A stretch of DNA of 64,000 bases from positions 33,606,001-33,670,000 of the forward strand of contig OZ249436.1 of assembly GCA_965235115.1 (NCBI GenBank). Reading direction: 5' to 3'. This DNA is from Laetmonice hystrix (taxonomy: Eukaryota). Below, in pieces: positions 1,695 to 43,150 of this stretch (positions within the stretch are counted from its first letter, which is position 1; every line of letters starts with the position of its first letter). The position numbers and the translations under genes were made by a program. The notes under the pieces are model-generated. The model was given only the letters and a program-made list of their open reading frames with translations, ran no database searches and had not been told where the DNA came from.

Positions 1695-2273
1695 CTGTCT
1701 TGATAATGTGGCTTCATTTTCATACATTGTAGCCTCGGCAGGCTCGTCGTTATATGCGTCTAGAGTTACAGTGACCGTGGTACACGGGTACTTAGAGTTG
1801 CACCCCTTGCCACAAGAACAGCGTCTCTCATCGCTTGCCTCCTCCCACCGGATCGGGTTACAAACAGTGTCCTCGAAATGCATGGCCCTGTGGTAAGGTG
1901 CCACGATAAGTACCCCAATCACAATGAGCGACACCACACTGGAGAGAATGAACAAGGCCAGGCACATATAAAGGCAAATCGTACAGGGTCGGGAGCGGAT
2001 GCAACTCCTCAAGGCAGAAGTCCGCTCTTTGTTGGGCTGGTGGTGGCCCACCTCGACCCCTCCACCGGCCGAACTTTCCTCGTCTTCCGTATTGATGGCG
2101 TCATCTTCCTCGTCCTCGTCCTCATCCTCATCGTCTTCGTCTATGTCTTCCTCCTCTATGTCTATGTCCTCGATGTCCTTCTGTTGCAGGGTGATGATGT
2201 CTTTCTCCGAGGAGGCGTCGTCCTCGGGGTAAAGGTCCCCGTCCTTGTCGCCGACCAGCGCCAAGTTGAGCAT
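1695..2273 (-). CDS. Coding exon A of a BK-channel beta-subunit-like (KCNMB family) gene: N-terminus, TM1 and first half of the extracellular loop (193 codons); the remainder lies in an exon not found in this window
   Basis: ATG at 2273 (gccaggATG, A at -3) with an in-frame TGA upstream at 2342-2340. Translation gives an acidic tract (DIEEEDIDEDDEDEDEDEEDD), a hydrophobic TM (LYMCLALFILSSVVSLIVIGVLIVAPY) and the loop FEDTVCNP...CSCGKGCNSKYPCTTVTV...YENEATLSRQ. This matches the KCNMB pattern C..CG.xC...YPC.xV.V. The exon ends at a consensus donor CAG|GTGAGT (1695/1694), phase 0, so the ORF tail VSLNLRK... is intronic. No specific KCNMB orthologue can be assigned. Confidence 0.88.
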
Positions 2274-3157
2274 CCTGGCCGACCCGTGTCCAGACCCCCG
2301 GTTCCCCAGTTTGCTGCCTTTTCCACTTAACAACAAACCTCAAGTCAATCTCCGCGTGGGTGCGGTAGCGGCAGCGGGGACGCTGATGGAAAGGAAGCCA
2401 CTCGGGCGGTCACGCTATCCCCATGTGGTAGCAGACGGACTGGCTGCACCCTTGAGCGCATCATTTCATGAAGGAACGGGGGGGAAAATATCCAGTGGAG
2501 TATTCTGTCTATACACTTATACCAAGCCAGTATGTCAAGAACAGGGCGTCAGGGCAAGGATGATGTGAAGGAATCAATAACATCAACAACTGCAACTTTT
2601 CAGCAGGGTGGCCTCCGATGTGCACTACAGCATCCTATCTACCTTGAGTCTCATGTGGGCTGTACCGGTGATCGCGTTCTCGTTTTCGCTTGATAAAATC
2701 CGTCTCATGAATCACTGCACACGAGTTCATTTGGCGAACAAAGGCAAAATGTTCACTCCATACATCTGTCAGAGTAAAGCATGCAGAGGATGGCCGTGTC
2801 TGTGTATGGCAACGAGTTAGCTCTTTCAGTGCACTCGCTATCGTCGATGCGCACCAATTCGAAGTTGTCCGAATGAATCACTAGTTTTCCCAAAAGCCCA
2901 TGAAGTAATACGCCATTATTATGCTGACCATTACCTGTTCCATTCGGCACGAGCCGTATTGACAACAGGTAACGTCAATATCCTGCCGCTCGCCAGCACG
3001 AGTCAACCTGAACTAAACGTCCTGGTAGCACGTATTCCCCTGTTTTGCCGCAACCTTGTTTGTCGAAACGCGTGGCTGGTATGCGCGCCAACTGCGCGAG
3101 CACGCTGTTGGATTGTGCCAGGCCGTCAGGGACAAGAGCTGCAACAACCGTACGGTG

Positions 3158-3161
<4 letters not shown>

Positions 3162-3212
<51 letters not shown>
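3162..3212. repeat. (CAG)n/(CTG)n microsatellite, about 17 units with one CAA interruption
   Basis: Read directly. It generates the spurious poly-C, poly-A and poly-S ORFs at 2959-3303. Confidence 0.95.
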
Positions 3213-3215
<3 letters not shown>

Positions 3216-5944
3216 GAGAAAGTACCGTTGATGACGTTGCACAGCGTTGCTGGCGGCGTTCGCGCTGTTGTCCTAGCCCTGGCCTCCAATAGAGATAGTG
3301 CACGTCGAATCAGCTGGAAGCCAGCTTCTTGTGTTCAATCAGTCAATGGGCGGAACCGTACAGACGCTGAATTCACGGAATTAATGATCTCTAAGGCTGA
3401 CCTTCCACGCTCTTTCATTTGCCCGGGTTAATCGAGGTGGATTTCTTTTTTTGTAAGTGTTGGGGGGAATTGCTGCTGGAGGAGCTCACTCGCATGTGCT
3501 AACGCAATAAACACGTGCCCTCGTGGTCTGTAGCATGGGTTGATATGTATGAGATAATTTACTAGTTACTTGGCGACAGTGTCCTGCGGGTGGTGGTGGT
3601 CAAATGTTTGGACTTGCGAGGGTATGTGAAAGGTCAAACGGCCTCCCCATCTCGGGGTGAAGGGTAGATTTGTCACGGTCACACCTGGTTGACAGGTGCT
3701 GTAGCCAACTCCAATTCATATCGCCCAACGTGAATGAAGAGCCGGTAAAGTGCGAACAGGGAGCGAAACTACATGTAATTGCCATTGACAACAGCTATCG
3801 TATTTACCGTTGTTCGGCGTGCGACTTTGGCGATCAGCCCTGACCCCCAATTTACTGGCGGCCAGTGGCATGCCATTCTGACCGCACTTAGCAGTGAGTA
3901 CCGTTTGACAACAGCACGTGACATGTCTAGTCGATGTCGAGACACGAGGAGGCCATCAACGCCGCAGTTAGGTTCAATTAAATGCATCATTTATTTCGCG
4001 GTTGGTGTGATTGGATTGAGTGAAAAGGGCAAACAAAAGGGGAAATGGGCTACATATAGTCGACAACCCGACTTAACGTCAGCAATGGTTTTACTTCGTG
4101 AGCACAGTGAACTAAGCGCTGTTCATAATGACCCTCCTACATGGGATATCTTCAAAGGCAACCATCTGTCACTAACAATGTCACTAAGGCAATGAAAGAG
4201 CGTATAAAAATAAAACCAAGAAAGTAACAAATTAATATGAAAAAATGAGGGTATGAATACATGCCATAAACATGAATCTATCATACTGAATGACTCTAAC
4301 ATTATGAAGTTGGCCGCCATGTGGTATGCACTGATCTGACGGATACGAACGCCAATAGGGGAGGATTAGGTCAGTTTGATAAAACCTTAACGTTCTTAAC
4401 TTCGACTTACAACTTTGTTCTGACAACTCCATGCATTTCTTTTACCATATTTAACATCCAAATCGAGTTAGTTTAAAAAAATTATCTCTGCTTTTTGTCC
4501 CTCACACTTATTGACTTCCTGTGAGAAAAATCAGTATCAAATCCATAGGTGCAGCCACTTTTGGACCAAGTTTGAACTATTGACTCCTCACGGGATCGAC
4601 ACCTTGCAATCCATTATTGAATGGGTGACTGTGAAAATAGCTCCCTATTCCAAACCTTGTAATTTTCTAACCTTGTTCTCGCCGTGGGGAGCAGAATTCA
4701 GCAACGGTACATTAGGTTGAGCAATCTTCGAAATCGATGGAAAATATGATAAAATATTCTTACAATAATTGTACTACGAATCCGTTTTTATATAAAGCGA
4801 TTAAGATTTCGAAAATAACCTTAATGTATTTGGAGATAAATAATATTAAAGCCAATAAATTGAGAAGCTCAGATAATTTGACTTTACGTCACGAAACATG
4901 GCCCAAGTCGCACTCATGCCACGCATTAGGATTGCGAAGAAATCCCATTTCTGGGATAATACGGCTTACAGTCACTGTCTGTACTTTGCTTAGCAGCTCA
5001 AAGTCGGTCAGCCATTAGGAATCCTACACTAATGACCATTAGCTGGCCTCGTTAAGTTGGAAGTGACCTGCACCGCCGCTTTGACGCGGCGCATACTGAG
5101 TACGCCGGAGATGGCAGTGTCCACTCTCAAAGCAGAATAAAAACAAATGGATCCCATCTTTGGAATTGATTCCTTACCATTAGATCACGATAAACCAGTT
5201 AACTGACTGTTGTGTACAGCAGACCTCCTTATTTGAGATAATCAGTTCTAATTAGCCGCACTTACATTAACTAGGAAAGGCACAGCGTCGCCTAGATGCA
5301 TCAAAGGATAACAAAATTATGCACTTTGCATCCGGTCTTTGATAAAGTAAAATAAAAACAAAAGAGGTAAAACGGAAGTAATCTCCTTAAGAAAACGGAA
5401 GAAGAGATTGCCCCCCCCCCCCCAAAAAAAAGATAAGAGTGAAATGTCTGGAACTTGTTCATCTCTCCTTCAATCTCCCGTTATCTGGAGCTCGTTTGGT
5501 TGAGAGGAAATTACGTAAGCGCCTTGCGTCGTTGATCGCATCCCGTCAGAGCTGTTCATCCTTCGCTGTCATTAGGTAGGAGGACGTCACTACGGTCGCC
5601 CGAGTGATCGGCCCATCCAAGGCATGCATAACTAAGTATTTGATCCTCAACACATTAATGTAATTATCAAAGCAAAGGAATGCCTCATGCATGCCAGATC
5701 ATCGGCAGATTACTACAGACGGGCAGCAGCATCAGTATCAGACATATATAGGTAAGTGTGTCTATACGTTATAAACTTCTAGTGCTAGTGAATTTAGACT
5801 TATACTATAAACTCGTTCTCCCTCTCCATTTGACCTTTTCTCCGGGAGGGCCATTTTCCTCTTTCAAACCGTTTTCTATACTGTAAGGTGACACACAGCT
5901 GGGCTGAACATGACAAGAAGGCTAGAAATAGAAATCTACTATAT

Positions 5945-6065
5945 CAGGCACGGATCCAGGGGTACGTCTCCCCCTTCAGTTGGCCGAGCATAGTTTAGTT
6001 TTAATTAATGCCTTTTCTGTAAAAAGTCTGTGTCCACCTTTAAAAAAATCCTGGATCCGTGCCAT
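5945..6065. mobile_element. Short MITE with CAGG..GGATCCAGG termini (hAT-like)
   Basis: Left end caggcacggatccagg (5945) is inverted to cctggatccgtgcc (6050-6063). Flanks tactatat/tatatata are only an imperfect 8-bp TSD. Related ends occur at 13519, 13673, 21713 and 23150. Confidence 0.6.
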
Positions 6066-7122
6066 TATATATATAGGCTTGGAAGCCATCTCCCTGGAGA
6101 AGAGAAATACGTTGCCAAGGGAACGATTGTGACCTTCAACCCACTGTGAAGCCAGCCCTGCTCCCCTCTCGCCTCCTGAGACTATTAACCGGGCATAACA
6201 AATTAGAAGATGTCCATTTTTTTGCGACCCAAGTCCATTATTCCATCGTGGTTGAATTATGAGTCGCGCAGAGATGTTTCCAATTTCAGAGTATTTTCCA
6301 TGCTGTAAATAATCCTCAAGTATAATATCAGACAAATTCGATCGGTTTTTAAAATTCGGTACGTAAGGACTTCCATCCAATTGATGAGGTTTCCTGACTC
6401 CGTTCTGTTTAAAAGCTCAACATTCTGTTTTCCCTCGGTGTAAAAGAGGGTCTCACTTTTACCTACTATGCATCTCCACCAAACTGATGCTCGTAGGTGA
6501 CCCCACGGTCACCTTATGTTCTAAACGATTCACCACTTGGGGCCCAACTCCTATCTCTCCGAGATAGATTTTTTTTATTCACGATAAACATTTTTTTCTG
6601 CTGTATTTTATCGGCGGCTCGCCCCATGATGTTGTACAACTCGACCGTATACGTGATGAAGATGGGAAAGGGCGAATGGTCCGGCAAGCAGGTGGAATAC
6701 CGCCTGTGTTATCGTCAGATGGCCCATAAAAATACACTTCCCAATAAGTACCTCACACTTTTACACTATCACTAAGAGTTTGGTCATCGGCATAAAATAT
6801 TGATTGGTGCATAAATAATAATTAAACAAACGTCGGTTGTAATAACATGAATAGAAAAGGGGTGCATGTTTAAAAACTGTTTTCTTGGTTTTAATTGAAA
6901 TGTACGAATAAATCCCCTGCCACTGCTGATACGTCAATTCTTCGCCAATAATTATTATCGAACAGGGGATCGGATAGCTGAACAGGGAATCAAAATGATC
7001 TTTATTAACAATATTTTTATATCACTAATTTTTAATAGCCTAAACAGATTAGAATCAGGTTCCTGATAAGAGTAAGCAACAGCGGATGTAAGGACTACGG
7101 TTTGACCGAGCTTTCTTCAATA

Positions 7123-7569
7123 CCAGAACTGCCGCGCCCACCAATCACTCCCCCATTGCCGCCCAGAACTCCCGCGCCCACCAATCCCTCCCCCATTGCT
7201 GCCCAGAACTCCCACGCCCACCAATCCCTCCCCCGTTGCTGTCCCGACCAGAACTGCCGCGACCCCCAATCTCTCCCCCATTGCCGCCCAAAACTCCCGC
7301 GACCACCAATCCCCCCCATTGCTGTCCAGAACTGCCGCGACCACCAATCCCCCCCCCATTGCTGTCCAGAACTGCCGCGACCACCAATCCCTCCTCCATT
7401 GCCGCCCAAAACTGCCGCGACCACCAATCCCTCCACCATTGCCGCCCAAAACTCCCGCGACCCCCAATTCCTCCCCCATTGCCGCCCAGAACTCCCGCGA
7501 CCACCAATCCCTCCTCCATTGCTGCCTAGAAATCCCGCGACCACCAATCCCTCCTCCATTGCCGCCCAA
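7123..7569. repeat. GC-rich minisatellite, about 40-bp unit (ccagaactcccgcgaccaccaatccctccccattgccg-like), about 11 copies
   Basis: Unit starts at 7123, 7163 and 7203 give a period of 40. The plus strand is C-rich and the minus strand G-rich. Confidence 0.95.
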
Positions 7570-10500
7570 TGTTTCTCTCGGTCGCAGCACACACACTTGC
7601 AGTGATTGCTTCCTTTGTCTATTGGCGTTCACGCCTCTAAAGACGCTGTTCGTTGGAGCACAGGGTGCAGATGTTTCACAGGCGCTCAGAGCAAAATCGT
7701 CCTAGAGGTTAACATTAGTCGAACTCCCGCGCTTGGCGTTTTACTTGGCGAACACATCAAAAGGGAATGTTCTTAGAACAGGGGATCACACGTCTTACAG
7801 GTCTGAGACCGAACCCGTCGAACCTTGCTAGCCCAACCTCGGCCAATAAATGTCACGGTGGCGCGTAAGGACAAAGGGATAGGTGTCCGTCCTGAGAGAC
7901 TTACACCAATCTCTTCTTCAGCTCTACCTTAAAGGACACTTTCGCAAAAGCGTTGACCTTGTCTGGCTATCAGCAACGTTTATATCCTCCTTTCATTTCA
8001 GATAACAGGGCTAAAAATCCATAAAAGGCGTGATATTTAGCAATAATGTGTCTAAAAGGAAGTTTTCAAAAACAATTAAACCGTCAGCCATTTGTAAATG
8101 GCACATCCTACCGCAAATTGTCATCTAATTCGCATCTTTTTGAGGTTTTATTTACCAAACCGGACCATGCCATGCAAGAGCAGTGGATGTGATAATACGT
8201 CCAGCCCCAAGCCATACGTCAGCTCAGGGCTGTAGGCGGAAATTTGACACATCTCCATCGTTTGACGCTGTGACGATGCTCCCTTAAGTCGGATTGCCAT
8301 TTAGATTCCAGGTTTAATTGATTAACTAACCATTGGTGTCTATCTAGCATATACGTACACACAGACACTGGGACGAGAGGGGGTATAGGTGGGGCATCGG
8401 ACTTGTCCTATAGAGGTGGCCCTGCCACTGTGAATATCTTACGTCCTGACCCCTATAGGGAATATATCGGATCAACCTCCCCATGCCCCACCGGAATATC
8501 TAAATATCCTGTGGCTATGGTAAAGTAGTTTAATATAAGGAGGATTGCCCGTACATGTGTGAGATATCAGGCCACCGACAGATTCCCTCCAAATAAACCC
8601 CGGATGTAATACCGACAGAGGTAATACGGGCATGTGTTAGCCAAAGATATCAACTCGGTCAGACCTCGCCCTAATTATAGTTCATATACTTTCATCAGAT
8701 TAAATCAAAAATTTAATGTCCTTTCTGTCATTCCAGTCGCAATTACATCTTATCACGTGAAATCAATTTATAAGTTTCCAATGCCCCCATGGCCAGTTCG
8801 CAGAGTTAGTGTTGTAGTAGACTGCCGGAGGCAAGATCTTCCGTGCCATAATATGCAGGCAGAGTTTGAACGAGGCGACTTACAAATTGACTTATACATA
8901 CTATTAGCTATAACATGTTCGGGGTGCACGGCTTTGGTTGTCATACCGATTTAAACCAATCTACCTCTACTCAAGAGGATGAAGCTCTCATTGCGCATCC
9001 TTTGGTGACACTATTCAGCATCTTAAAGACCGTCCTATCTCAGACAAATGGAAGGAAGTGGAAAGGGAGTAACTTAGTTCATGCAGGTTGGAGACATGTG
9101 GCTATGATTCGAGTCAATAATTAAGACAGTTGTCATCTTGTGGGCCCGTCCGCAGCTGCCGCCTATTAAACACTGCAGCGGTGCATTTCCTGTGGGCAAC
9201 TCTTAATATCCGCACCGATGAATTGCTAACGGAGGCTGCTGTCTCTCCTGCTGGCAGCAGTTCCGGGACGTCTTTCGTTAAAAATGCCTGTGTTGCCATT
9301 GTTGACTTGATATTGGTTCAGATCCAAGACCAAAGCCTTTGTACCTTCATGGAAGCACACAATGTCTCATCTCTGGATGACTGTCATGCATGCTTGGCTA
9401 ATATAAGGGCGTTCCTCAAATCAAAATTTTCTACTCCCCTTAAATGGCAAACGACGAAATGCTCATTTTCTCTGTGTACGAGCGTACGCTTTCATCTTCT
9501 CCGCCTAGATACCAAAGTTGGGAGAGGCGACATTTACAAGTGGCCTAGTTCCCTGTAAGAATAGCGGGTCCGATCTGGTATAACGTCCATTTCTACTCAA
9601 ACACTTTGAATCTTGAGACTGATGAGAGAGAATGCAGGTCGAAAGGCCACACTGTGATCTCGGCGCAACACTGGCCATATTACCTCTAGAACCCACTCTG
9701 TCTTTGCTGTAACCGTGAGGACGGAACTGGTGGCCGGGGAGGCTGGACCGAGGCCGTGCCGGTCCTTACCAGCGATGGTTGAGGGCGATCTGCCAATATT
9801 AGAAGTCTCCTCCATCCTGTTATATGACAATGGGCCCGGGACGAGACGGGGGCCCTTGGAAATATCAGGGCCCAGTGGCGTGCAGGCATCACTTTCTCAG
9901 GACGTACTCGGAGATTGTTTCACAACGGACAAGATTCTTCTAAAGGTCGGATTCACTCGTAGATAGCATCGGACGGCGGAGAATCGGACCGACATGTCAT
10001 CTTTGTATATTATGAGCCGTCAGATTCTACTCAAGTGTTCCGATACTGTATGATGTATAGGACCTCACTGATGTTGTACAAGATATATACAGTAGTTGGA
10101 CAAGAAAACGGGGGAGAATGGAAAAAAGACAGCGGCAATGAAGATGTATGCCTACCCTACCTTTCTAGGTATCAATCAATCCCCAAACCATGGTTTCAGG
10201 GTGACTTTACAAAGCAGCATGTATAGATAAAAAGACCTATGATTTAAAATATTCCTTGATGGGCGCCGGGGAGTCGAATTTCGCTAACCTTTCAAACCCG
10301 CTGAAAGACTACAGTATATTTTCCATTACGTCTACCCACATAATGGAACATGTGTGCTAATGTTTGCCCTGCCATTTGGACCTCCAAACACCAAACGTTG
10401 TAGCGAGCGAGCACGGATGCCAAACGTCACGTGACAAGGCACGCGAGACGTAGGCATACACTTTTTTCCTAAAGGGCTTTCTGTGTGCAAAGGGCTTTCC

Positions 10501-12578
10501 GTGTGCGCATGCTCCAAACAGGTATTCCTGCCCGACTAATTATGCCAGAATTCAAGGCCATAAAAATATTGCGAGGAAAGCCAGAATTCACTACATCGCC
10601 TCCTGGGACGAAGTGGACCTTTATCTCAAGAAAAAAACCCGGTAGTTTATTGTTTTGCAGGCTTCTGACAACCGCCGTAATCAAATTAAACACTGGGAAG
10701 AAAGCTATGATTCTTCCAACACCTATAATCTCAGATATTATGCGCCGAAATTGGTTTCAAGAATGTCCCACAAGAACCACGTCCTAATAACTTGACGATT
10801 TCTGACGACCTACCACACGAGTCGTCAGCATCAATCATCGGCCAATTATAGCCGCAATGATCTTATGTTTCATTCCTTCCTCATATTACATCTAAAACCT
10901 AGGAAACTGTCTGACTCACCAATAACGTATTATATGAAATAAATTAACGAAGCTATCATAACGGTGCCGTCGTAATTACACATTTCCCTTTGCATTTACA
11001 AGTCTCTTGGTTCAAAGAAAAAAAACTTCTAAGATATTTGAATGAGAAAGAACTCGGCGAGATTAAATCGGTAACGTAATGGGATATAGGTAAGAATGGA
11101 CTTATTTAAACGGTCTTTGCAAATTGAAATTGATCAGTCCCTGTGCAATGTTTCCATTCTCATGCCATGGATGATTATCTTTGTAAGCAGTCAGGATTTT
11201 TGCTGAAATTATTCACGACAATATGTCATTAAAAGGAAAAATGAGTCAACTTCAAAGGAGTAACATACAGCCTAGGCACCATTAAGCAATACCATCTGGT
11301 CAATACCTATAAATTCGTGTAAGGGAACAAAATGCAATGTCAGGCACGATTTTTTATTCTAATTTCTAATTAAAAATGCATGACCAAAGATTGAAATATC
11401 GGAAGATTATCATAGCTAACTCGACTTATCAACACTGCATGAGCAGGGGATATTGGTTTGCAGGGCGAATGCCAGTGAGTGTAATACATATAGGCCTAGA
11501 CTTCCACGAATGTATAGTTTCTTTTCAAACTTACTAAGAAAACATCAGTTGCAATATATCCGTTGAAACGTAGAGTGGCTTTTAGAAATTGCATATGAAA
11601 ATAATGAAAATACTTCACAGGACACTAAATTATGGTAGATTTAATTGCTATGCTCTCTCACGCCCTACAATACCTGTTAACTGTCAGATAAAAAATGCTT
11701 TTTAAATAATAGTCCTTCATATCAATTCTATGAGAGTATTCTAGCCAGAATCAGGGGATGCACAGCAACGTCCATAATAACATGACTCATTAGGGGGAAG
11801 TCGTCCTGTCTGAAGGAATTAGGCAGAACCACTGATTAACACCGTAAGTAGGTTCTTAATTAATCAATGTTCTCCTTTCTATATCGGCAGTTACATATAA
11901 AAGTATAATACCACTTCAATGGCGATGTACAGCTTGAGTTTAAAAACCTCTCGACATGAAAAACTCGGGCCTAGGGAAACATAAATCCTTTTATTGGGGT
12001 ATTCCCGTTGGTATATAGCTCCAGGTTATATTATACAGCATGAATGCATTTCCCGGTCTGACACACAGTCCTGTCAAGAGAGGGCGCTTCGATTACATGT
12101 ACGAAGTTTTTTTTAGCGCTCGAACAAATTGAATCCACCTTGCTCGAGGCTCCTGCGCGTTCGTTATTATACGAGTAAAATGCGACATCATTTAGATGCC
12201 GGCTGGCGCAGGGAACCTCTGATATGGAGTGCTATCATCATTATAATGGAACGTTATTCATCACAGAGCACTGCACCGAAAAACCAATGGTGAAAAAAGG
12301 GCGAAGAATTAAACGGAATGTCTCTTTCAAGCAAGTGCTCTTGGGCCCTATATTGATTGACATACAGTTGGTGGTAATGGGCACGAGATACTTTAAACGA
12401 CTCGGCACTAGGTAGGGGGTATGGATTTAAACTTAAATGAGGATATGAAACTCTTCTCACATTCAGTCCATCAGCTGAGTTTCCGGTGCCAAATGTTATA
12501 ATTGAATTGCACGCCAGGACGCGTACTGAGAGTTACGGTTCGGTATAAGTGAAACTTAGGGCCGTATTTTAAAACTGT

Positions 12579-12647
12579 CCTTAAGGCAAAGGATTTCCTT
12601 TAGTCTATTGAAATTCAATGGACAAAAGGAAATCCTTTGCCTTAAGG
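12579..12647. repeat. Near-perfect 69-bp palindrome, probably the core of a MITE remnant
   Basis: 34-bp arms ccttaaggcaaaggatttcctttagtctattgaa and ttcaatggacaaaaggaaatcctttgccttaagg, with 2 mismatches and a 1-nt centre. Confidence 0.9.
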
Positions 12648-13518
12648 GGGGGGGGGGTCGGGTGTAGAAATGGAAGAGGGCTAGATTTTCGTGCAAAATT
12701 GTGCATCACCCCTTTGGGAGGGGGCAGTTTTCGGCGAAGGACAAATCCGTTTCAATGAACCCCCTGAGCGGCTATACATTTTGATTTCCGATAAACAAAT
12801 AAAAGGTCTATTTCTCTAAAATAGTGGTTTGCTTCTACAATACGATCCAACTTGCCCCAAATACGGCGGACCCCTATGTTAGCCTAATCATTGCTATATG
12901 GACCGAATGTATATCTGTTTGTAGGAATTGATGGGATGGATTCATGTAGGCTAACTAATGAAACCCTTAAAATCCTATCGCTTATATTAATCAACATTAT
13001 CAAAGGATTAACCGCTACATTATATTAAGTACTTAATTGTCAAGAACTATCTATAGACTATATCTTCAGATCCTTTGAAGTAGCAAACTGAGGCCATGAA
13101 GTGTTCATTATGTTTGTATCATGGCTGTGTAAGAGGGTATACATGTACAATGTATACCTCTTTCTATAAACAGACATGACACAACCGTTACCGCGGCGTT
13201 CGTTTGGTTCTTACATTAGACACCAGGTGCTGATGCATGTCGAACAGTGCACATGTGGATCACAGTACTAGCACCGCCACCTGGTGTTTCTGAGAAAATC
13301 AACCCATCGCCTCGCTGCTGATAACCGCTTTAACCCAGGCTGGCAGAAACCTTTTTTTACATGAAGAGTGGATATCAACATTTCTGTGTATTTTATTTTA
13401 TCGTATGTATTTCTTGAATGTGCAATTTATTAATTTGAGCAGTATACATAATTAGCATTATTTGGTAATGAAGACATTGGGCTGGAAGATCCTATCTGAC
13501 ACTACCGCCCAATGAGAG

Positions 13519-14147
13519 CAGGGGCGGATCCAGGATTTTCAAAACGGGGGCTGGGTGCTATGGAAAAAGGGCACTTTCTCAAACCGCCCTCCCCTCAGTG
13601 AGTAGCCTAAACAGTCAAATAAATGTGGCATATATAGGCACATATCAACAAATTTCTCAGTGTGGGGGCAGTCAGGGGTTCATCCAGGAATTTGGTAAAG
13701 GGGGTGCACCCCATGCGTACTCTGAAGGCGCGAAGCCATGAATCCCTCCCCCAGAAAATAAAATTACAGTGCCAAATACGCGATATAGACCAGCCTTTGG
13801 GCCTATGATAGGCTATAGGCCTAGACAATTGGACATTTTAAAAATCTTTCATAAAAATAAAAAAGGGCACTTGGGGGAGAGAAAAGGGCACTTGGGGCGA
13901 GAGGGGGGGGGGTGCGCGGTTCTTCCCCCATGATAACTTTCCCACGAAATGTTTGGGCAGGGGTTAGGGTTAAGGTCAGGGATAGGGATAGGGATAGGAT
14001 AGGGATGTGTTTTGGGGAGGTGTAGGGACTGGGGTTAGGGGTTAGGGATAAGGTCGGGGCTATGGATCTTTACTTCCGACCAAATTTCGTGGGGTTTAAG
14101 TTATCATGGGCGATATACCGGGTGCGCACCCCCTGCATCCGCCACTG
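13519..14147. mobile_element. Composite of hAT-like MITE(s) with a nested insertion
   Basis: caggggcggatccagg (13519) and caggggttcatccagg (13673) both face the inverted end cctgcatccgccactg (about 14132-14147). Internal aaaagggcactt motifs are repeated. No clean TSD. Confidence 0.55.
13917..14120. mobile_element. Non-autonomous DNA transposon with internal telomere-like GGGTTA/GGGATA repeats, nested in a MITE
   Basis: TIRs cggttcttcccccatgataactt and aagttatcatgggcgatataccg. Direct repeat ggtgcg at 13911-13916 and 14121-14126, or 8-bp gggtgcgc if the termini are GG..CC. Confidence 0.8.
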
Positions 14148-19477: not shown

Positions 19478-19557
<80 letters not shown>

Positions 19558-26046: not shown

Positions 26047-26117
26047 AGAGAGAGAGAGAGCTAGAGAGAGAGAGAGAAATAGCGAGACAGAGACAGAGAG
26101 AAGAGAGAGACAGACAG

Positions 26118-26148
<31 letters not shown>

Positions 26149-26156
26149 CAGAGAGG
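26047..26156. repeat. Compound (GA)n/(GACA)n microsatellite
   Basis: Read directly. Confidence 0.92.
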
Positions 26157-30731: not shown

Positions 30732-33700
30732 GGGATATATAGTTTATCAGGTTTAAACAGAGGAGCTGCTCTCAAAGATGAGACTTGATACATTCAATGT
30801 CTTTCCCACTAGACGGCCCATAACGATGTATCACATTTTGTGGGCATGGGTCGTTCATTCTTCCATACAGGTCGGTACCACTGACGCTAATAGAAACTCA
30901 AGTCAGGCATTCGAGGGGCCCCATCTGAAATGATAGAGATGACAACAAGTTGTCCATCCTTCGTCCCTCAGTTCCTCGCCAATCTTCACTTCCGGTGTAC
31001 CTCTCCTACTATCCCCGGTATTTCCGGCTCATTGCTGCAAATATACCGGCAGAGTGAATAATCTCTAAATCAGCCAACCGGCCTTTCCTTACCAACCCCC
31101 ACCCCACCTCACCAACAACCCCCACCTCACCCCTACCCCGCCCACCCCCACCCCCACTGATATTACCGGAATATACTCCTTGATGATAGTAGAATTCCAC
31201 CAGAATAATTGCTTTTTGAGAGCTGCAGGTTGATGTGAGAACCGGTCAGTTTTTTTTCCTGAAGAGGACGTTTTTTATCGACTCGATCACACCAGGCAGT
31301 CACGTAGACAGCAGTGGTTTCTAGCAGTGGATATCCTGTGTACATTCATAAGTAAAATCAATATGACTGGCAATACAGTCACGTCCTTTCGTGTTCACTC
31401 AACAATAGATAGACGGCGCTGAGGGCTGATGAGTTTTCTTTTGATCCCACATACTTGTCTTCTTTTATTTTATTATTTTTATTCTCGATACGACAAATCA
31501 CTTCAGACCTCCGTTCACGGGACAATATAGTTTGCCTTCCACCATACATATGGTATTATGATACCTGGTGCATATCAATTTGGTTAACATATAGTTTATA
31601 ACAAATTTAAGTGCGCATTTATGTGTAAATGAAACCAACGTCATGTGTCAGACGGGCTAAATTAAATTAAGTGGGCTTAATTAAAACAACTACAATAGAT
31701 TGTCACGTCTATCTGATGACCATCCATGAATTCCATTATGAAGGCAGGGAAACGGTTGGACGGCGAAAGTTGATTCCATTAAAAACTCATATTAGACGCG
31801 TTAATTCCAATTCCATAGAAGAAATGCCATACTTATGATAGGTTGATGGCACTGCAAAATTTGAGACTTTGAGAATATAGAGGCTGTTGTCTAGGAGTGG
31901 AGTCCAAACCGTCCAGTCAATGTGACTCCACCGGGAGCAGTCTCCCGCTCAATTCATCATCGTCTGCTATAGCCGAGACTTCTTCTAACGGTGGTCGGGG
32001 ATTTCGACCGGTAACTTTATTACAGCCATGCCAGATACAAGGGGCGTGAAAACGAGTGTGTCCTTAAGCTAAGCGTAACACTCCGCTTGCGCTGTCTCCG
32101 TAGATAGCACGGAGCTCCTTATAAAAAACATCGACAGCCGTATCTCAAGCGGTTCGACTCAGCCGGGAGTTATTCCTAGTCAAAGATGACTCCGAGCGCA
32201 CGGGGGCAGAAACAAGTCGAAGGCACGGTTGGCAAAAATGTGAGAAAGAGAGACTCAAAGACATTCTTCCGCTGTTGTCTTAAAGCCAGTTCACGTACAC
32301 TCGGATCGCAAGTCACACGACAAGAAACAAGCGATAATTAACTTCGGAGACACATTTGTCGCAAGTTCAATTTGCGTCATGGACGATTATAGCTTTTTGG
32401 AAATCTGCTAATTTTATTCCAATTAAAGTGGTTGCATCGCATAACAGGAAACGAATGCGATTCTGAATGTATAAAGGATTGAGCTTTTAGTGGAAAGGAA
32501 GAAAATATAGCAGAGTAGGTTCCCGCCATTAAATGCCGCATCCCTATAGGAAAACCAATAGCTCTCGTATTCTGGTAGTCCTGCAATAATCTACTGCAAA
32601 TGAAATTCTCCACAATACAGATTTACTTTATGACAAAATATGCCTTTAAGAGACCGCAAGCTCTGTGATCCACAAGATTAACCCTTTGGATTTGATTGCC
32701 AATCTCTACCGGAAGGCTGGACCTCATGCAGCGTCTATGCGGAGCACCCACCTCCAAGCTTGAAAATGAATGCCACGGTAGATCCTTTCAATTCAGGAGA
32801 AAACACACAGGCTCATATATGGACTTCGCCTAGCCCCTGTCGTTTTGTATATGTCACAAACTCTATCATTATAGCGATCTGCTTCTCATCCCTACACTAA
32901 GGAAGGCGGGATTGCATTGCATACACCATATGTTGCCCGACTACAATCAGTTGATCTAATAGCTACCGTCCTCCTTCGCTGTCCGTAAGATGGCTATTAT
33001 AAACTCGTTTTGACAAAATTATTGGTAAAGGGCATGATGTCCCATGATATATGGTTTATTATGAAAAGAACAAATAATATCGAGATTCCCAGGCCCAAGA
33101 ACTACCCGAGAGGCTAAATCTATTTTACACAACTATATTTACGTCATAGACAACGCTTTGGAATACTTCTCCCTGCTAGCTCAACTTACTTTGTATGTTG
33201 ACATTTTCACCAGAAACCATCCATACCAGAAGAAGAGGCTGTTACACAATATCCATTTCCGAGTTGTCTAAAGCCATACATTATAGATTGTATTAATACA
33301 ACGTCTTGCATTTACATACTCTACTGAAACACCTCGTAGCGGAAGTTAGGGGGCATAAGTTACTGTGGGCGTCAGTGAATGGTTTCACATAGGACACTTA
33401 TTTATATTTCAATGGACCTCCTGTTTGCTAGAGATGCTACTTTCGTGCAATATGCCCCCAGTGCACACCACAACATATTCGAGCCTCTTACAAAACTACT
33501 ATCATTATAATTCACAACCTTAAAATAGCGACTTTACAATCAGTATTTTCACAAATCTTACACCGTGCACAAATTTCACAAATCGGTCAATTAATAATTA
33601 GAGGGTTTCAGACTATTTCCAGAACTATAATTTTCTGAGAATCCTGAAGGTCAACTAAAATACCTTTGTAAAGGAATACTACGATCAGCATGCAGTAAAC

Positions 33701-34263
33701 TGTTGATTCCATATCTCCAGCCCAAGCATGGCGATAGAGGCCCTCAACAGAAAGGATTGTTCGGAAACGCTACGTTTCTCCCGAACAAGGAGACGTGGAG
33801 ATTGCTGTCTCCTACTCCGCGTCTGTCTTGTTGAAAGAAACCCCGTCTCGCGAGAAATCACGCTTTTCTTCAAACTGGAAATTGTCTTGTCTCATCACAC
33901 AACTTGACCGATTTTTGCCCTCGACCGATTAGCATGTCTTCGACACGAAACATGCACACCAAAGACATTAAAACCCCGTCATAACTTAAACGAAGACATT
34001 ACAAGTTATAGAAATGGGCCACTCACTCACTAACACGCTCAAAATAATCATTCCATTAACATGTTTACATCAAAGACGTTCTCCGTTTTTTTATACGGAT
34101 GGCAAGGATGACATCCTCGTTGAAAGTCGATTTCTGCCTAATCTACAATGGAATTACGTTGTATCATTACTTCTAGTCCATTCACTTTATGAAGTTTTTC
34201 GTACTAATTTAAAGTTTAATGCTTCAGTGTCAAATATAACGAAATGAAATCCACTCGCCTCAA

Positions 34264-34602
34264 AGGTGCTATTCGTCTCGCACAGAATGACATTTCTCCT
34301 ATCATACATTGTGCACATAGTGCTAGAAAAAATTCCTACCGATACCATTGGCCTGATAAACCTTCTATTAGTTTGTGTGCAGCACTTGAAACCTATCTCG
34401 GTGCGCACCGAGATAGAGCCATTTCCTATGGTGGGGCGTGTCAGGGTCTCCACATGCCTTCTGAGAGAGCCCAATTTGTGCCGTTATTCATGAAAAATTT
34501 TGATTTCCTTTGTTGTGAATCTATTTCCATGATAGGTGGGATCACATAAACGTCAACAAAATTAAAAATAAAAAATTGAATTTTTGTTCACGAATAGCAC
34601 CT
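34264..34602. mobile_element. Kolobok-like MITE (AGG termini, TTAA-type TSD)
   Basis: 13-bp perfect TIR aggtgctattcgt / acgaatagcacct, flanked by tcaa (34260-34263) and ttaa (34603-34606). Confidence 0.75.
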
Positions 34603-35930
34603 TTAATACTTGACTTTATAAAGATAGGCCAGTGTTTCATGTAGGCCCGTTTTGAAGCGGAGACTCCCCTCAAAAAGATCAGTTATACTCTCCTCCAAAA
34701 ATCTGTATTTCTTTTGCAAAACGTTACCCCTAAGCTATCCCAAAGTCCGTCGACTCTCCCGAAAAGGTGACATCCTCCAGAGAGGACCTTACAGGCCTAG
34801 GAGACGGGGCTTTCCGTCGCTGAGCGCACATTGCGTATTTACGAATCGAATATTCGGTATTGCACCGCGATCTGTTGGTAATACAAACTGCGTCTGTGTG
34901 TTTGCAGTGATCAGCAGAAATCACCCATGATCAGGTAGCTGCTCTGTTGTGTCATGGTCACGCACACAATCCATGCCTGCGGATTAGGTGAGCATTCCTA
35001 CAGTGTTCGTGGCCTGCATAGGTTAGCGTTTTGTACACTATGACTCTGCATATACTGCACTTAATGAATAATGACCATCTATGCACAATAAGGACTGCGA
35101 TGTGGACTTTTCAGTTGCATTGCTGCAGCAACAAATGGCACCCCATATTCATTTCAAAGGGATTTAGGGTGCATGTGCAACTAATCAATTTCCCAACGTT
35201 ATTTCCGGCAGCATTGTGACGATTGTAGAGGTTGAACCCATTTGTATCTGGCAGTAATAAAAGGGCACGTTTCAACGATTATACCTTACACTACTTAATG
35301 TGTATTGGTTCCATGGCAACACAGCTTTTCCGAGAATACTGAACCACTACAATGCGATTAATTACCTAGACAAGGCCGATATTATTCCATCTCATTAATC
35401 ACAAAGCAAACACCTTAATGAAAGGAGGATAGATGTACATGTTTCTACCTATTCAGCTGGTTGTATAATCTGTAAATGGACAAGATAAGTTGTCAAAGAC
35501 GCCGCTACTTCACATTAGTACTAATCCATTGCAAAACCCCAAAAAAGACGAAGCTGCAAGCTTTCGGAGACAGATGCAAATTCCTGTCACACGTGCTTAA
35601 ATTTCACAGCTCAACAAGCGCTGGCTGCCGCTGGGAGGGCTGCAGTGTTTCCGACATACCGGCAGGGGGATACGATCCTGACATTCTTGGCAACCTGACT
35701 CGGCATCAGCGAATACTTGCGTTCTATTAGTGCAAAAATTGGTTCTCTTCCGAGACGAAGGATCGAGCGACATTTACGACCTCATTCAATCCCTTTATGG
35801 GGACAGTAAATATTTCTCTTGCTGGCATCAGTTGGTTGGTGGGGGGAGTAGTGTCCCTAAAGCGTGTTATCATAGAAAAGACAGCTTCTGGATTGAAATA
35901 AAGTCAAGTATTGATCGTATGCACACATGA

Positions 35931-36268
35931 TTCCACCGGACGCGAGCGAGCGATTTTATCTTTCACACTCTCGCGCCTGGTCAGCACAACGCGAGCGCAT
36001 CATCTTTGACCATTTCCACCAGGGGCGAGCGCAACATGACATGACAGTGTCCAGTCTTCCGTCGCGAAGATTTCCTAGTTCACAATTCCGTTACGTCGAG
36101 CGAGCGCAAAAAGTTGAAAATTGACCAACTTTAAAAAATCGCGCGCGCGACAGACGGCATGATGTCTGTGCGCGCGTCTGTGGGAAATTACTGCAATCAC
36201 TTCAACTATTTCTACTTTTGACGCGAGCGCGCGCACCAAAACAAATCGCTCGCTCGCGTCCGGTGGAA
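35931..36268. mobile_element. MITE remnant with 26-bp perfect inverted repeats (Harbinger-like, left tip apparently lost)
   Basis: ttccaccggacgcgagcgagcgattt and aaatcgctcgctcgcgtccggtggaa, with a CG-rich gcgagcg-repeat interior. Confidence 0.75.
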
Positions 36269-38552
36269 ATCCCGCATCAACGCGACATCTGAAAGGCGTC
36301 GCAGAGGGCTCGGACGATCGGGGTGTGGACAGCTCAATAATGCAGTTAACAAGGGTAATTGACTTTTGGCTTCAGTTCGTACAGAAACACAGACTACGTA
36401 TCTATCTATAGTTAGAAAAAGGGCTTGATTCAATTGGGCCGTGGTAGATTTCGAGTCCGCGTTCTACTGTAGAGCTTCTGTCGTCAGGGCCAAAACGGAA
36501 GAAGGCCCGCGGCTGGCGATGTTAATCGAGTTCGCCTATCTCTCTCGCTGAATACAGCAACCAGTTCCAATCTATCTAAAGACCGGGCCATTCGGATGGC
36601 ACGGCACGTACTTCGAGTAGATCTACATCAGCCGTAACAGGGAACAGTCGGAAGTTGTATAGCACGACACGGAATCATTCTGCAGAGGTTTCATGAGTGC
36701 CGGTGATTTATGTAAAATATTGCACGCTGAAAGCTACACTTTGCACATTCCCCCTAGAACTATCTTTTTATGTTTTTGTGATGTGATTATTAGTAGGCAT
36801 AGGATTGGGTTAACAAACAAAGCGGAGGGCATATATGGTTAGCCTACGGCAAGAAATCAGGGTAGCCCTGTCATAATGTATCACCCCCCCCCCCCCCATA
36901 CACTTGTCAGAGGGCAGGGATATATAGCCTGTTGTGAACTGTTATCACGACCAACTCTCGACATACCATACGAGAATCTTAAGGCCTCACTAACATTGTA
37001 TCAAATGAACGAGACAGGGTCTTTTGAAGGCAGAACAAACTAACAACCTGCAGCAAGTAACCCACAAACTGACTGATAGGAGTGTGAACTGAACTGAAGC
37101 TCAGACGGATTCAACAGTTTTTAGGTTTTCAAGGATACAATTTGATCGCAATTCCATACAGATCGTTAAACGACCTCTTCGATGTGTCGGGAAAGATATT
37201 CGCAGCCTTGTAATTACTCATTCTCATTCAAAGACATCCTCCGATAATTCCACATGGGAACGTGGGTCGTTAAGGAAATGTATTACCACCAACTTGATTA
37301 GCTGCCGCTGAATATTCATTTCTTCTGGCTGCATCTCTTCCCTCCCATTCGATTTTGATGTCCAATTATAACATCACAAAACCATCTCTCTTACTCCTCA
37401 GCCTGCACTATAACAATGCCCCAGTACATGAAGTACGGTGGCGTACAGCCACAATATTAATGTTGGATGGTTGCACAGACAGACGCTCTCACACCACCTG
37501 CACCACAGATTCTATAAGATTAGTCTCTTGTAAATTCACAATGACACAATGGGGGATGACACAACAATACAGCTCAGGGCCAGAGTTAACATATCTCTCC
37601 CTGTGTCATCCAACACACAATAGGTATGGGGGAATTTATATTCAACCACCCTGCGTTGTCCCCACCCCAGACGGCATAAACTCGCACAGTCTAGGGTGAT
37701 TTGTATACCATAAATTATCCCCGTCTCTAAAGCCTCTCCCTCCCCTGCACCGTCTCAAGTCTTCCCATTCCGACTCGTTCCGGTAAGGTAACTAAATAAA
37801 ATCGCGTCAATTTGGTTTGTTTACCTGCGGCAAGACAACATCTACTGCGGCCTGGGTTGTGACCAACGACGACCGAATGCCGGGGCCGATAAGACACCGT
37901 CTCATTTCACAAGCTCGTCCATCCTCAGTTCTGGTTGACCCAAGCTAATGTGGCCCGACTGAGGCCAGTGTGCTGTGGTGGGATGCTGTGGATGTGGGAT
38001 GGGCGACTGCTCCCGGCAGCAGACTCCCAGTGACTGCCGATAAATAACAGTTGAAAACGACGCTAATGGCTACCCGCCATAATCGACCGAATCGGTGGAG
38101 ATCGTCCCCGCTTCTATACGGACGAGGATCTATTATTTGCCTCGGGATATTTTGTCTTCAGACAGGATCGACAGTCCCGGGGGGAGGGGGGGGGGGGGGT
38201 TAAAGATATACATGTTCGGTGGACAGCCGACTGCATTAGGACACATTACAGGGTCACGAAGTTCAAAATAACTCGGACAGACAATTTTTTTGGGTTGTTG
38301 GTTTGGACATTTTAGGCTTTTGAAATATGTCTAGCCGATATCCACGATGCAGACATTTTATTACACGCTGATGCGGTAGGAGCTTTGGAAGAGATGTCCG
38401 TCTTCTGCTGCAGTGGAAATCTTTGCTTTCGATCAGAGAAATTGGCACATTTGAACGAAAGCGTCAAAGACGAGGAAACAGCCGGTGCTGATGTATGGCG
38501 CGTTCTGTCTTCCAGAAATTAACATAATGGATTTTCCTCATGTTATTCTTAT

Positions 38553-38721
38553 ACGTACTGGTACACGAGTTCTGGTATAGACGTATTGGTACACGAGTTC
38601 TGGTATAGACGTATTGGTACACGAGTTCTGGTATAGACGTATTGGTACACGAGTTCTGGTATAGACGTATTGGTACACGAGTTCTGGTATAGACGTATTG
38701 GTACACGAGTTCTGGTATAGA
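38553..38721. repeat. Minisatellite, 28 bp x 6 (tggtacacgagttctggtatagacgtat)
   Basis: Unit starts at 38559 and 38587 give a period of 28. Copies are near-identical. Confidence 0.96.
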
Positions 38722-38883
38722 TATGTAATTAAAACATTCTTTTCTTATATGCTTCTTCTGATCAAGGACAGGCAGCCAATGAATGTAAACCAATACAAGA
38801 AACGTGACTTTCATTGACTTACTTTGGTAATACGTATAAACGTAGAGATGTATAGTTAAAGGCCTCTATTCATCTGTACGATT

Positions 38884-39089
38884 CCGTTTTCCGTTTCCGT
38901 TTTCCAATTCTCTTATTTGGCATGGCACTGTTTCCAATGTGGGCGGTTTGTCTTCCGGTTCCTGCTTACAATATACATGAGTGATCGAAACGCGGACGGA
39001 TAACGGAAACGGACGCACGGAAACGGACGCGCCACGGAAACGGACCCACGGAAACGGACGCACGGAAACGGACACATGGAAATGGACGC
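38884..39089. repeat. Inverted ccgttt / acggaaacgg low-complexity repeat, probably a transposon remnant
   Basis: An ccgttttccgtttccgtttt tract at 38885-38905 is opposed by (acggaaacggacgc)n at 38990-39089. Confidence 0.6.
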
Positions 39090-39107
39090 CAACCGTTCAG
39101 TGCCTTA

Positions 39108-40007
39108 AGCCCCTGTCACACTTTCCCGGATCAAGCGACGGTTTGGAATCATCCGTAGCGGAAGGCGATCCGGCAGCTTCCGTGACCTGGAAAGGCGATG
39201 ATGCGTGAAACTCCGTATCCAGAACGGGTTGATACGGGTTGACACGGCTCCAGTAGGGGTTACTACGACATTGTTACGGGTTGAGAAGGATTGTTACGGA
39301 TAGCTTCCCGGGGCTACTCCGTATAGGTACGGCTTACTATGGCTCACTACGGCTGTCTTACGGGTTGATGCGGTTCCACTACGGATTACTACGGGCTGTT
39401 ACGTATCTCCGACGGGTTATTACGGATCGAACAGGTTGGGGTGCTCGCCAATATATAGGCGAGCGTCACCACGTGCCACACGCGTTGGCTACCTTGTTTT
39501 GAAGCAACCCGTAGCAAGCCATACCAACCCATCACAATACGTAGGGTACCACCGTAGCACACCGTATCAACCCGTAGTGGATACGCACCAATACTTTGTG
39601 TGATCCGTTCCTATACTTACCAATACTTACCTATGCGTACCAACCCGGGAAGGATACCTAACAACACGTAGTGGATCCATCACCGATCACGTGATCACGG
39701 CTTACTAGGGAAACGCTAAGTGTCCACTAAGGGTTCCTACGTATCGCCTACGGGTTACTACGGGTCATCTACGGGTTGCTACGGATCCGCTACGGCGATT
39801 TTATCCGTGGTCGAAATCGAAAAAGTTTTGAACATGTTCAAAACTTTTCCACGGATCGAAAGACCGCTACGAATCGGTACGGGTTGCCACGGGTAGCTAC
39901 GGAACATCCCGGATCACGCCGGATCGGACCACGGATCATGCCGGATGCGCCCGTAGCCCCGATCCGGCAAGACCCGGCGCGCGATCCGGGAAAGTGTGAC
40001 GGGGGCT
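39108..40007. mobile_element. 900-bp PIF/Harbinger-type non-autonomous transposon
   Basis: TIR agcccctgtcacactttcccggatc / gatccgggaaagtgtgacgggggct (1 mismatch in 25). 3-bp TTA TSD at 39105-39107 and 40008-40010, and TWA is typical of PIF/Harbinger. The interior is tacgg/ccgta-rich and has no transposase ORF. Confidence 0.92.
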
Positions 40008-41875
40008 TTACGAATTCCTCCGCACCGTCTTGGTGCTCGCCGTAAGAGCAGACGGCCCCGTGTTGCCCCTGTGATGTTGGAGTGACCGCTAATGAAGAGA
40101 GCTGGCACTGCCTACATGACAACGTCTGTCATACTTAACAGACTTGTCTTGTCCGGTAACGAGATAGGCCAAATTGTCCCGGCCCGTGCTAAACAGGCAG
40201 CCGCTGACAATCTCCAGCTAATATTAAAACGTCGGCACGTAGCGCGGTGACAAGACCTATTTCAGAACAGGATTTAGGATCTTCTATGCTAGAATAATCC
40301 ATACTGCAAAGAGGTTCCCCATATTCTATGACCTAGATACATCTGAGATTCCCGTAGTATTAATTTAATGATCTTGATCAAACATCCAATTTCTGTTTTT
40401 CGTACAATAGCGACCCATCAAACCTAATACTTAATTAATGGTGAAAATTGGAGAATGTTAGTCCGAGCTTTACGATGTACGCTCAATAAAGCAACATGCA
40501 ACCAATGAATGTTTATGGCCAAAATACCCTCCATTTGTCTGACATAATACTATACTGTCATGAGTTCTAGTTTATTGCTTCAAATGACATGTGTTTTAGC
40601 AAGAACTCCTTTTTATATATTCATTCAGAATAGTACACTCTCTTATATTATTTAGATGAAGTCAGATGCAATAGTCACTCTGCCTAAAGCAATACCAACT
40701 CATTTCATTGCCCAACAAATCGGTGACGTGAGGCATGAAAACCGGGATAGTGTAATAAATCCACATTTATCTGCCCAGTCGGATACTAAGATAGCTGCAT
40801 GGATTGGCAAACCGACCACAGGTATTAATCCATCGGGTACTAGTATTTAGACCGGTGCGGCTGATTCAAGGGGTGCCAATGATTGAAATACACTGATTAA
40901 TCTTCGCAGCCAATGATATATCTTGATATGGAATCCAGCTTGAGTTATGGCACCAGCAAGACGAGGAAGATTGTGCCAAAAATCTCACTTCTCGCTACAC
41001 TGCCTTCAAAAGGGATCGGTAGGAAGTATCCCTGTCAGAATGATAGACGAGTTGGCATATTCTTATAGAATGGTCTGATCCATACCAAACATCTCGCAGT
41101 GCGGAATGGAAAAAGTATAGGTAGTCTGCCTCTGGCAAGTATGAAACAATTGAAACGTATCTTCCAAATACAAATGACAGTAGGCTGACCTAATTGTCGC
41201 TGTAATCTGTAAAGGTGATAGACCATTACCGCCCCCACCCTCCTTGGAAATCATAACTGCAGTTCACAATTATCTGAATTGTGTTTGGCTTTGCAATTGT
41301 TATAAAGTAGAGAGTGTATTTCTAGCAGGCCAACCAAAATTTAACAGTTTTCATCAGCATAGATTTTCGGATACCGCTTTCAAAATAATTACGATAAATC
41401 TCATTTCTTTCTCTCAGTTATCGCCTAGAATTTGAAGTAATGTTTACTCGATCGTTATCATAGTCATGATGTATGAATCATGCTGACTGTATTTGAAATC
41501 ACTCGAATGATGGAGATACCAGTTTATCAAATGTTTGTCGTATTTAAACACAATTCCTAATGTGTTTAAATTTTAAAATGACTATTTCTAATGACGGTCT
41601 TCTATATATGTCGTAATCTAAACGACATAAACTCACATCCAGGGCAAATAGATTCATGACTTGCAATGTAATATTATATCATGCCTTAGCCTAGGGATTG
41701 TAACAGAATACACCCCAGTGCATAGCCTGTCGATGCGTCTTTGGTTCGTTTACCGTGCTCGATGCCTCGGGGTATGGGTCGAGAGTGGATGCATACCGAT
41801 GGGCATAACCTTATTATCGATTTACCCTAGATAACGGAATCATCTGGGTTAGAGGTCTCTGTTATGGTGACTTAC

Positions 41876-43150
41876 CTGTCTCCCGAGCATGGCTTCGTTG
41901 TCCTGCAGGGGAGCACTGTACAATGTACCATTGATGTCCCTGTAGCCCACCGTGACCTCCATGCAGGGGTAGTCAGCAGTGCAGCCCTTCCCACAGGAAC
42001 ATTTAATAGGTTCTCCGATATACTGAGAATGTTGCGGGTTACAGAACGTGGGTTCAAAACGCTCAGCAGTGCGGTAAGCATCCACCACGACTATGCCCAC
42101 GACGGCCATGGCCACGACGGCGCCTAGGAAGAATATGATCAGCCAGAAGTAAAGGGTGATGCAGCAGGCTCGAGACCTTCTGCAGTGTTTACACGTCTTT
42201 CGCCGACGTTCGAGTTCCTCTTCGACGTCGCTTAGCTCGTCGGTGCTTGCATCCGACATCTTGGGGCCGAGGTTCATGTGTACGGTCAGGTGGTCTTTGA
42301 CGATCGGGAGGGGTTCCAGTTGGTGACGGTCGGGTTTGGTTTGGTTTTGGTTGCTATACCCTCCAGTGGTTTCTTCAGGCCCTGGTGCGGTGTCCATGGC
42401 GACGTGGTTTGACGTTACGTCATCAAGCATTCCGTCTTGGTCACTCGATTCAGCCGGCACCTCTTCGTTTGGTTCGTCTGTATTGGCAATGCTAATGAGA
42501 ACGGCGCCTTCGGTGAAGTCCGATTTTTGTTCTTCGGCAAGAAGTTTGGTCTGTTCAGTGGGTGCTCCAGTCTGTTCCTCCTCCATCAGTGCATCCTGAG
42601 TAACTTCTTCTTGTGCACTAATAGCGGCGGCGTCGGTCAGGGAAGAATTGTCGGAGGCTGACACGCCATCGTCAACCTGAATTAAATCCACGCTGGGAAC
42701 AGAATCATTGGCGCTGTCCTCTCTAATGCCGTCACTGGCCCCTACGTCCGCTCCGCTGTTAGATTCTGTCTCTGGTTCCAAGGGGCCAGACTCGTCACCG
42801 ATGTTGACCTCCTGGTCACTTGTTGGGGTCACCTGTGCACGGGAAAGGTTCTGGCCCAGCTGGAACAGGTCTATGGCTGTATCGACCGATGTCTCCTCTT
42901 CGCCTATCTCCTCGGATGTATTTCCAATAGAGGACGTGTTTTCTTCGTTTTCTAACAAGCCATATCCATCTTTCGTCGGCCCCGCTGCCCCTATGGATAT
43001 ATCCTCCCTGCCATGGACAGGCGATCCATTTGCCGGCTCGACTTGCTGTGGATCCAGAGATCCGTTACTCTGAGACAGCTCTAGATCTAAGAGGCGCCCT
43101 CTGTCACCACTACGGTCCTCCGACTCGCTACCGATTCCAGGGTCGGCCAT
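41876..43150 (-). CDS. Coding exon B of a BK-channel beta-subunit-like (KCNMB family) gene: about 320-aa acidic disordered N-terminus, TM1 and first half of the extracellular loop (425 codons)
   Basis: First ATG of the 448-aa ORF is at 43150 (agcATGg). TM: ITLYFWLIIFFLGAVVAMAVVGIVVVDAY. Loop: FEPTFCNP...CSCGKGCTADYPCMEVTV...NGT...QDNEAMLGRQ. Consensus donor CAG|GTAAGT at 41876/41875, phase 0, at the same codon position as exon A. The last 105 aa align gap-free with exon A. Confidence 0.9.

Follow-up and report, generated by a model that had tools for sequence, protein, structure and literature searches.

Loci in which a tandem series of similar, same-frame first coding exons precedes a common constant part have been described for GCNT2, UGT1A, UGT2A and the protocadherin clusters (PMC1885805). 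GCNT2 (IGnT), whose three variable exons include a membrane segment and conserved cysteines, is the nearest of these to the locus considered here (PMC1885805). Among invertebrates, chelicerate sDscam likewise has a constant region preceded by 5′ cassettes in tandem (PMC4835542), and among the beta subunits of the large-conductance calcium-activated potassium (BK) channel, human KCNMB3 uses alternative 5′ exons to build distinct subunits (beta3a-d) on a shared body (PMC2442174). Here we analyze a window of 64,000 nucleotides (nt) from Laetmonice hystrix (C1:33606001-33670000 of G000, a 627-Mb animal genome), which contains no N, together with its flanks. The window lies within what is very probably a single gene of the CaKB family, the family of the BK beta subunits, in which three tandem variable first coding exons (C, B and A; hereafter heads) are served by one constant last coding exon (the tail).

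Compared with the GCNT2, UGT and protocadherin clusters, this locus belongs to another protein family and to an invertebrate, and its constant part is a single coding exon. Two of the four features that define variable-first-exon clusters are observed here: the three heads are tandem paralogs on one strand and in one phase, and one common constant exon lies downstream, with none between the heads. The other two, promoters and splicing, are proven in those described clusters, whereas here we infer them. In KCNMB3, the alternative exons are N-terminal pieces ahead of the shared exon 2, one of them adding a single Met (PMC2442174); unlike these, each variable exon here is a duplicated half-gene with the first transmembrane helix (TM1) and half of a disulfide-bonded outer domain. 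The sDscam loci, as described, carry many cassettes of two to four exons and encode adhesion receptors (PMC4835542), whereas the present gene encodes a putative channel subunit and has three variable parts of one exon each. At the protein level, beta4 (KCNMB4; PDB 6V22) likewise has two helices and an eight-cysteine outer domain (PMC6934384), whereas the heads described here carry acidic N-terminal tails of 90-320 residues, and their partnership with Slo is putative. Insect TipE/TEH proteins, distant kin of the Slo-beta subunits that form a conserved cluster, are encoded by whole separate genes and regulate the Para sodium channel, so the fold need not serve BK (PMC3240667); a 2026 review (PMC13694676) names other invertebrate BK partners. 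We found no published description of a three-head, one-tail layout in the CaKB/BK beta family, within a literature coverage that mostly left out subscription journals. The locus is probably a further variable-first-exon cluster, well supported at the DNA level.

Exon A (window 1695..2273, minus strand) has its ATG at 2273 and its donor after 1695 (CAG/gtgagt), and its 579 nt (193 codons) encode an acidic N-tail followed by TM1 and the opening half of the outer loop, which holds five cysteines. Exon B (window 41876..43150, minus strand; ATG at 43150, donor after 41876, CAG/gtaagt) spans 1275 nt (425 codons) and encodes a long acidic N-tail (~320 residues), TM1 and the first loop half, again with five cysteines. 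Both exons end in the residues RQ at a phase-0 GT donor, and their proteins are 42% identical across 110 residues (E 4e-29). An earlier note, made from the letters of the window alone, had described this pair as paralogous same-strand exons, each with its own ATG and a homologous phase-0 donor, and this description holds, with both now matched to the first half of CaKB. The note had also suggested that both may splice to a shared constant exon to the left of position 1. Such an exon, encoding loop and second transmembrane helix (TM2), lies 26.7 kb left of the window (C1:33579001-33579258, minus strand, 85 codons), where a pyrimidine tract and CAG acceptor are followed by the second loop half with three cysteines, TM2, a short tail and a stop. 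The search that it had proposed beyond position 64,000 for more exons of the CSCGKGC type yields exon C, 27 kb right of the window (C1:33697169-33697870, minus strand, 234 codons), with the layout and phase-0 GT donor of A and B. Its idea of isoforms sharing one tail is supported as an architecture at the DNA level, with their count raised from two to three. On the minus strand the order is C, B, A, tail; the constant exon lies 28,436 nt from A, 68,617 nt from B and 117,910 nt from C, and the predicted spliced products comprise 278 (A+tail), 510 (B+tail) and 319 (C+tail) residues.

The claim that only one tail serves three heads was examined across 264 kb around the locus, without N, comprising 6,997 open pieces, using profiles of the first and second halves of the protein. 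The first-half profile recovered three matches (E <= 3e-32; next best 0.15), and the second-half profile, built from nine seeds that included the locus tail itself and one spurious piece, recovered one (E 1e-31; next best 0.03, upstream of C). With tblastn, 23 of 25 second-half queries matched the tail and none revealed a further one; the other strong matches fell on the ends of heads A, B and C, with which ten of the 25 queries could overlap. A model-free scan sought acceptors opening a phase-0 exon with an initial cysteine and a hydrophobic helix. None of the 404 acceptor-like sites in the C-to-B interval qualified; of 300 in the B-to-A interval one did, without similarity to the family, and of 231 from A onward only the tail itself did. 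Profile, tblastn and acceptor scan all agree with the earlier note that no family tail lies between B and A. The note had, however, expected a WP motif in TM2 and had scanned for it by eye; the real tail carries WS, so that scan could not have detected such an exon, although the absence stands by profile and tblastn. In terms of window coordinates (all minus strand), 1..1694 is the start of the intron downstream of A, toward the constant exon outside the window; 2274..41875, the B-to-A interval, holds tandem and dispersed repeats and no CaKB second-half exon; and 43151..64000, part of the C-to-B interval, likewise holds no such exon.

As a control, the second-half profile recovered all eight paralog tails in four other regions that were absent from its seeds (E <= 5e-14), and each of the eight has its own first half upstream. 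Tandem arrays with a 1:1 ratio of heads to tails are the rule among paralogs in this genome, and the 3:1 count is peculiar to the locus of C, B, A and tail among those examined. Only 1 of 33 tail matches genome-wide falls on C1, the remaining 32 being at most 44% identical to it. Two further candidates near the locus were rejected. A weak tail match at C1:33701403 (E 0.03-0.04, 37 residues) sits upstream of C, and a putative fourth head at C1:33781736 (first-half match, E 0.002) is a separate one-helix exon with a stop and without the cysteine loop, beyond other genes. The gene at the latter site (C1:33781401-33783596, minus strand) has an extended N-terminal part of low complexity and a single membrane helix at its C-terminal end that faintly resembles CaKB TM1, with a stop right after it.

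Searches against Pfam CaKB (PF03185) place the heads in its first half (A at positions 16-100, E 4e-8; B at 19-88, E 1e-3) and the constant exon at positions 106-182 (E 5e-11). Against the curated cut-off of 25.1 bits, A (33.6), the tail (43.1) and the spliced relative P0003 (78.8) score above, whereas B (19.1) and C (22.3), being half-proteins, fall below it alone. P0003 is a natural A-type head spliced to a tail 74% identical to that of the locus. It matches the human beta4 sequence at E 3e-13 with ~23% identity, and its structure model (mean predicted local distance difference test score 76) shows two long helices and a beta domain. In Foldseek, beta4 is the top match of this model (E 5e-13), and all 10 matches with E below 0.001 are chains of beta4 or beta2N-beta4; a protein atlas places P0003 in CaKB clusters at 0.96, with a recognition value below the threshold of the tool. 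The five cysteines of each first exon and the three of the tail align with the eight cysteines of beta4, whose human disulfides are C54-C148, C68-C119, C72-C76 and C84-C113 (PMC5854672). By the P0003/beta4 alignment, the head exon supplies beta4 cysteines 1-5 and the tail the remaining three, with three of the four disulfides spanning the junction. B and C would thus require a tail of the constant-exon type, because their kept cysteines would pair across the junction, and one such tail exists.

The N-tails of the heads carry short conserved blocks and a cysteine-rich basic patch ahead of TM1, with aspartate and glutamate making up 36 of 92 residues in A, 73 of 322 in B and 29 of 130 in C. In A, residues 1-16 show no change across all 5 aligned orthologs. 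That the patch is palmitoylated, and that the conserved N-termini of A and C act in inactivation, by analogy with beta3a-c (PMC2442174), are guesses. The proteins may be auxiliary subunits of a Slo/BK channel; the Slo-family domain PF03493 matches at four loci in this genome. Alternatively, they may partner a sodium channel, the kind of channel on which TipE acts (PMC3240667, PMC6259924).

Searches with the heads recovered 28 longer proteins and 257 cluster representatives, 150 of the latter being among the matches listed. Orthologs of A (P0008, P0012, P0013, P0019), of B (P0007, P0014, P0016) and of C (P0006, P0009, P0010, P0011, P0039) each group with their own head in a quick tree covering 118 of 190 rows and 122 columns, with support of 96, 97 and 99, respectively. 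Over the last 110 residues, ortholog identity reaches 58-77% for A, 58-83% for B and 67-85% for C, compared with ~40-45% between the three heads, and the five loop cysteines are kept in 19 of 19 rows checked. In 16 foreign ortholog rows, called on unspliced DNA, a Val codon stands at the donor and is followed by divergence; the GT donor position is kept across species while the read-through sequence beyond it differs in both length and letters. The reading frames of B and C retain start, donor and all cysteines, contain no stops and are conserved as strongly as A. Judged by sequence, B and C are not dead exons, because intact orthologs with all five loop cysteines exist in other animals. The distribution of B-like and C-like heads extends well past the closest orthologs. 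Judging from equal contig size, one ortholog each of A, B and C lies on one contig in two other assemblies (617,704 and 5,521,134 bases). A and B orthologs also share a contig size of 5,119,030 bases, the second member of that C cluster being on a contig of different size. A tail search at near length returned six proteins, none on the long trio contigs, which is uninformative in that tails have no start codon of their own and often go uncalled. No relative was encoded in any of the 69 candidate stretches from bacterial and archaeal genome contigs or the 74 from viral contigs. A metagenome scan of 171 candidates gave five loci, all tails, two of them with an A-type head within 10 kb; no B or C head was seen at these five.

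Several observations weigh against a single gene with a shared tail. Among 182 proteins, none links a B or C head to a tail; 14 of the 182 score on both halves (two of them weakly), and the spliced members of this subfamily (P0003, P0075, P0092, P0101, P0179) are all A-type, four by tree and P0179 by eye. This absence is weak evidence, because most of the set appears to have been called on unspliced DNA and because gene models favor the nearest exon. Contig JAAUXT010023351.1 carries an A-type head and tail twice in tandem, with introns of ~2.4 kb, and Capitella teleta has two A-type genes with different tails. On the former contig, the upstream and downstream tails are 86% and 59% identical to that of the locus and the heads 54% and 48%, a contrast between tails that would agree with additional constraint on a tail that is shared; no B or C was found in the 7 kb covered upstream of the head. 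The intron from C to the tail would measure 118 kb and would have to leave out two exons. The sequences ahead of the three ATGs show no shared motif (best shared word 12 nt, E 0.33) and no CpG peak (ratio 0.52-0.95 against a median of 0.84), and A and C are preceded by acceptor-like sites at distances of 109 and 86 nt, respectively, each with a chance expectation of ~19%. For exon B, no RNA run was among the matches listed; three sequencing runs that were listed, from one sample, are uninformative on expression because they behave as DNA, with 30 of 30 bins covered and contigs crossing the B donor into the intron.

The locus might instead hold three ordinary tandem genes, the tails of B and C being missing from the assembly, too diverged or recently lost in this lineage. 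The tandem two-exon copies of A type in another animal and the 1:1 arrays usual for paralogs in this genome would both suit such an arrangement, and contigs from the three runs, compared over 20 of the 118 kb, do not bridge the stretch as a single piece. Nonetheless, we consider it quite unlikely: the 264 kb are free of N, which also disposes of the assembly gap that the earlier note had allowed for; a diverged tail should show in a profile that detects paralog tails of 29-44% identity at E <= 5e-14; and two independent losses of a tail would be needed beside heads that are intact, stop-free and conserved like A.

B and C could also be made as truncated one-helix proteins, by intron read-through or through an unrelated exon, acting for example as decoys or modifiers and leaving the tail to A alone. 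The open read-through is short (8 residues for B, 19 for C), the spliced products found are A-type only, and the one passing site of 300 between B and A is a weak candidate for a phase-0 acceptor and comes with a hydrophobic stretch. That candidate shows no similarity to the family, however; the read-through tails vary among species while the position of the GT donor stays; and three of the five kept cysteines would be left without partners, making truncated products very improbable. Orphan exons commonly arise through partial duplications confined to a first exon, and the lack of a spliced B or C product among the 182 proteins would agree with B and C being dead remnants of this kind. We give this next to no credence, with open frames of 425 and 234 codons, start, donor and cysteines all intact, orthologs 58-85% identical in several animals against the far lower identity between heads, and each head clustering with its own orthologs. 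For B, the earlier note had named an orphan exon or partial duplication as a possible outcome, and at the DNA level its intact, conserved counterparts in other animals speak otherwise.

Under the preferred model of one gene with three heads and one tail, each transcript would use a single head, whose phase-0 donor would be spliced to the common acceptor; for B and C, we infer this junction with the constant exon. Separate promoters would be the likelier arrangement relative to mutually exclusive splicing behind one promoter, and each head may have an untranslated 5′ exon of its own, or a single shared leader may serve mutually exclusive heads. Just upstream of the ATG of A, window 2274-2345 (minus strand) is conserved in the read-through of P0008, but with a frame difference, and looks like a conserved 5′ untranslated stretch. 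The gene would probably yield three channel regulators that have TM2 and the second outer-domain half in common but each bring their own N-tail, TM1 and first outer-domain half. Of the alpha-subunit contacts described for human beta4, most are made by TM1, and the start of TM1 and the preceding segment affect gating most (PMC6934384). Because these parts carry most of the contacts in beta4, the variable exon would be the one that sets the gating of the channel.

If the joins are real, they would amount to a cassette of protocadherin or UGT1 style in an auxiliary subunit of an ion channel, with the split passing through one folded domain in which three of four disulfides link the variable to the constant half. 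The three isoforms would then form a natural swap experiment, the variable exon holding the parts with which human beta4 touches and gates its channel. At such loci, gene callers are likely to annotate no more than the nearest exon. A wider proposal, which we rate as rather unlikely, holds that the trio is an old cassette widespread in marine invertebrates. It would offer a choice of three channel-facing modules on an invariant half-domain, with different gating tails, possibly inactivation peptides and different partners (Slo or sodium channel), and with mixed tetramers formed via the shared half.

Across the genome, the CaKB search gave 43 exon-level matches on many contigs, four of them on C1 (A, B, C and the tail). 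They amount to a large expansion of predicted BK-beta-like genes in an invertebrate, and point to a large, apparently unstudied invertebrate CaKB family. These matches include a tandem array of five (C20:13.65-13.71 Mb), in four of which the first half is divided between two exons.

The cluster is bracketed by unrelated genes, EamA downstream and a ubiquitin-conjugating enzyme and a Roc-COR gene upstream. Two tandem EamA/SLC35-like transporter genes lie just downstream of the constant exon (L021:7946-9064; L022/L023 boundary). The ubiquitin-conjugating enzyme (C1:33712546-33713067, minus strand), 15 kb upstream of C, is intronless and possibly a retrocopy, and C1:33716373-33723816 (minus strand) contains very long open frames encoding Roc-COR (715 residues) and then CARD with proline-rich repeats (1669 residues). 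The A-to-tail intron holds an apparently intact long interspersed nuclear element (C1:33591487-33596033, minus strand) with PHD, endonuclease and reverse transcriptase, its frames comprising 1104 residues and an ORF1-like 276 residues. A 559-nt repeat element at window 30170-30728 is missing from one contig per run in the three sequencing runs and is probably an insertion on one allele only. Minisatellites with units of 25 to 46 nt occur in the introns (window 7123-7568, 16220-16922, 18094-18324, 56838-57745 and others), and none touches an exon edge.

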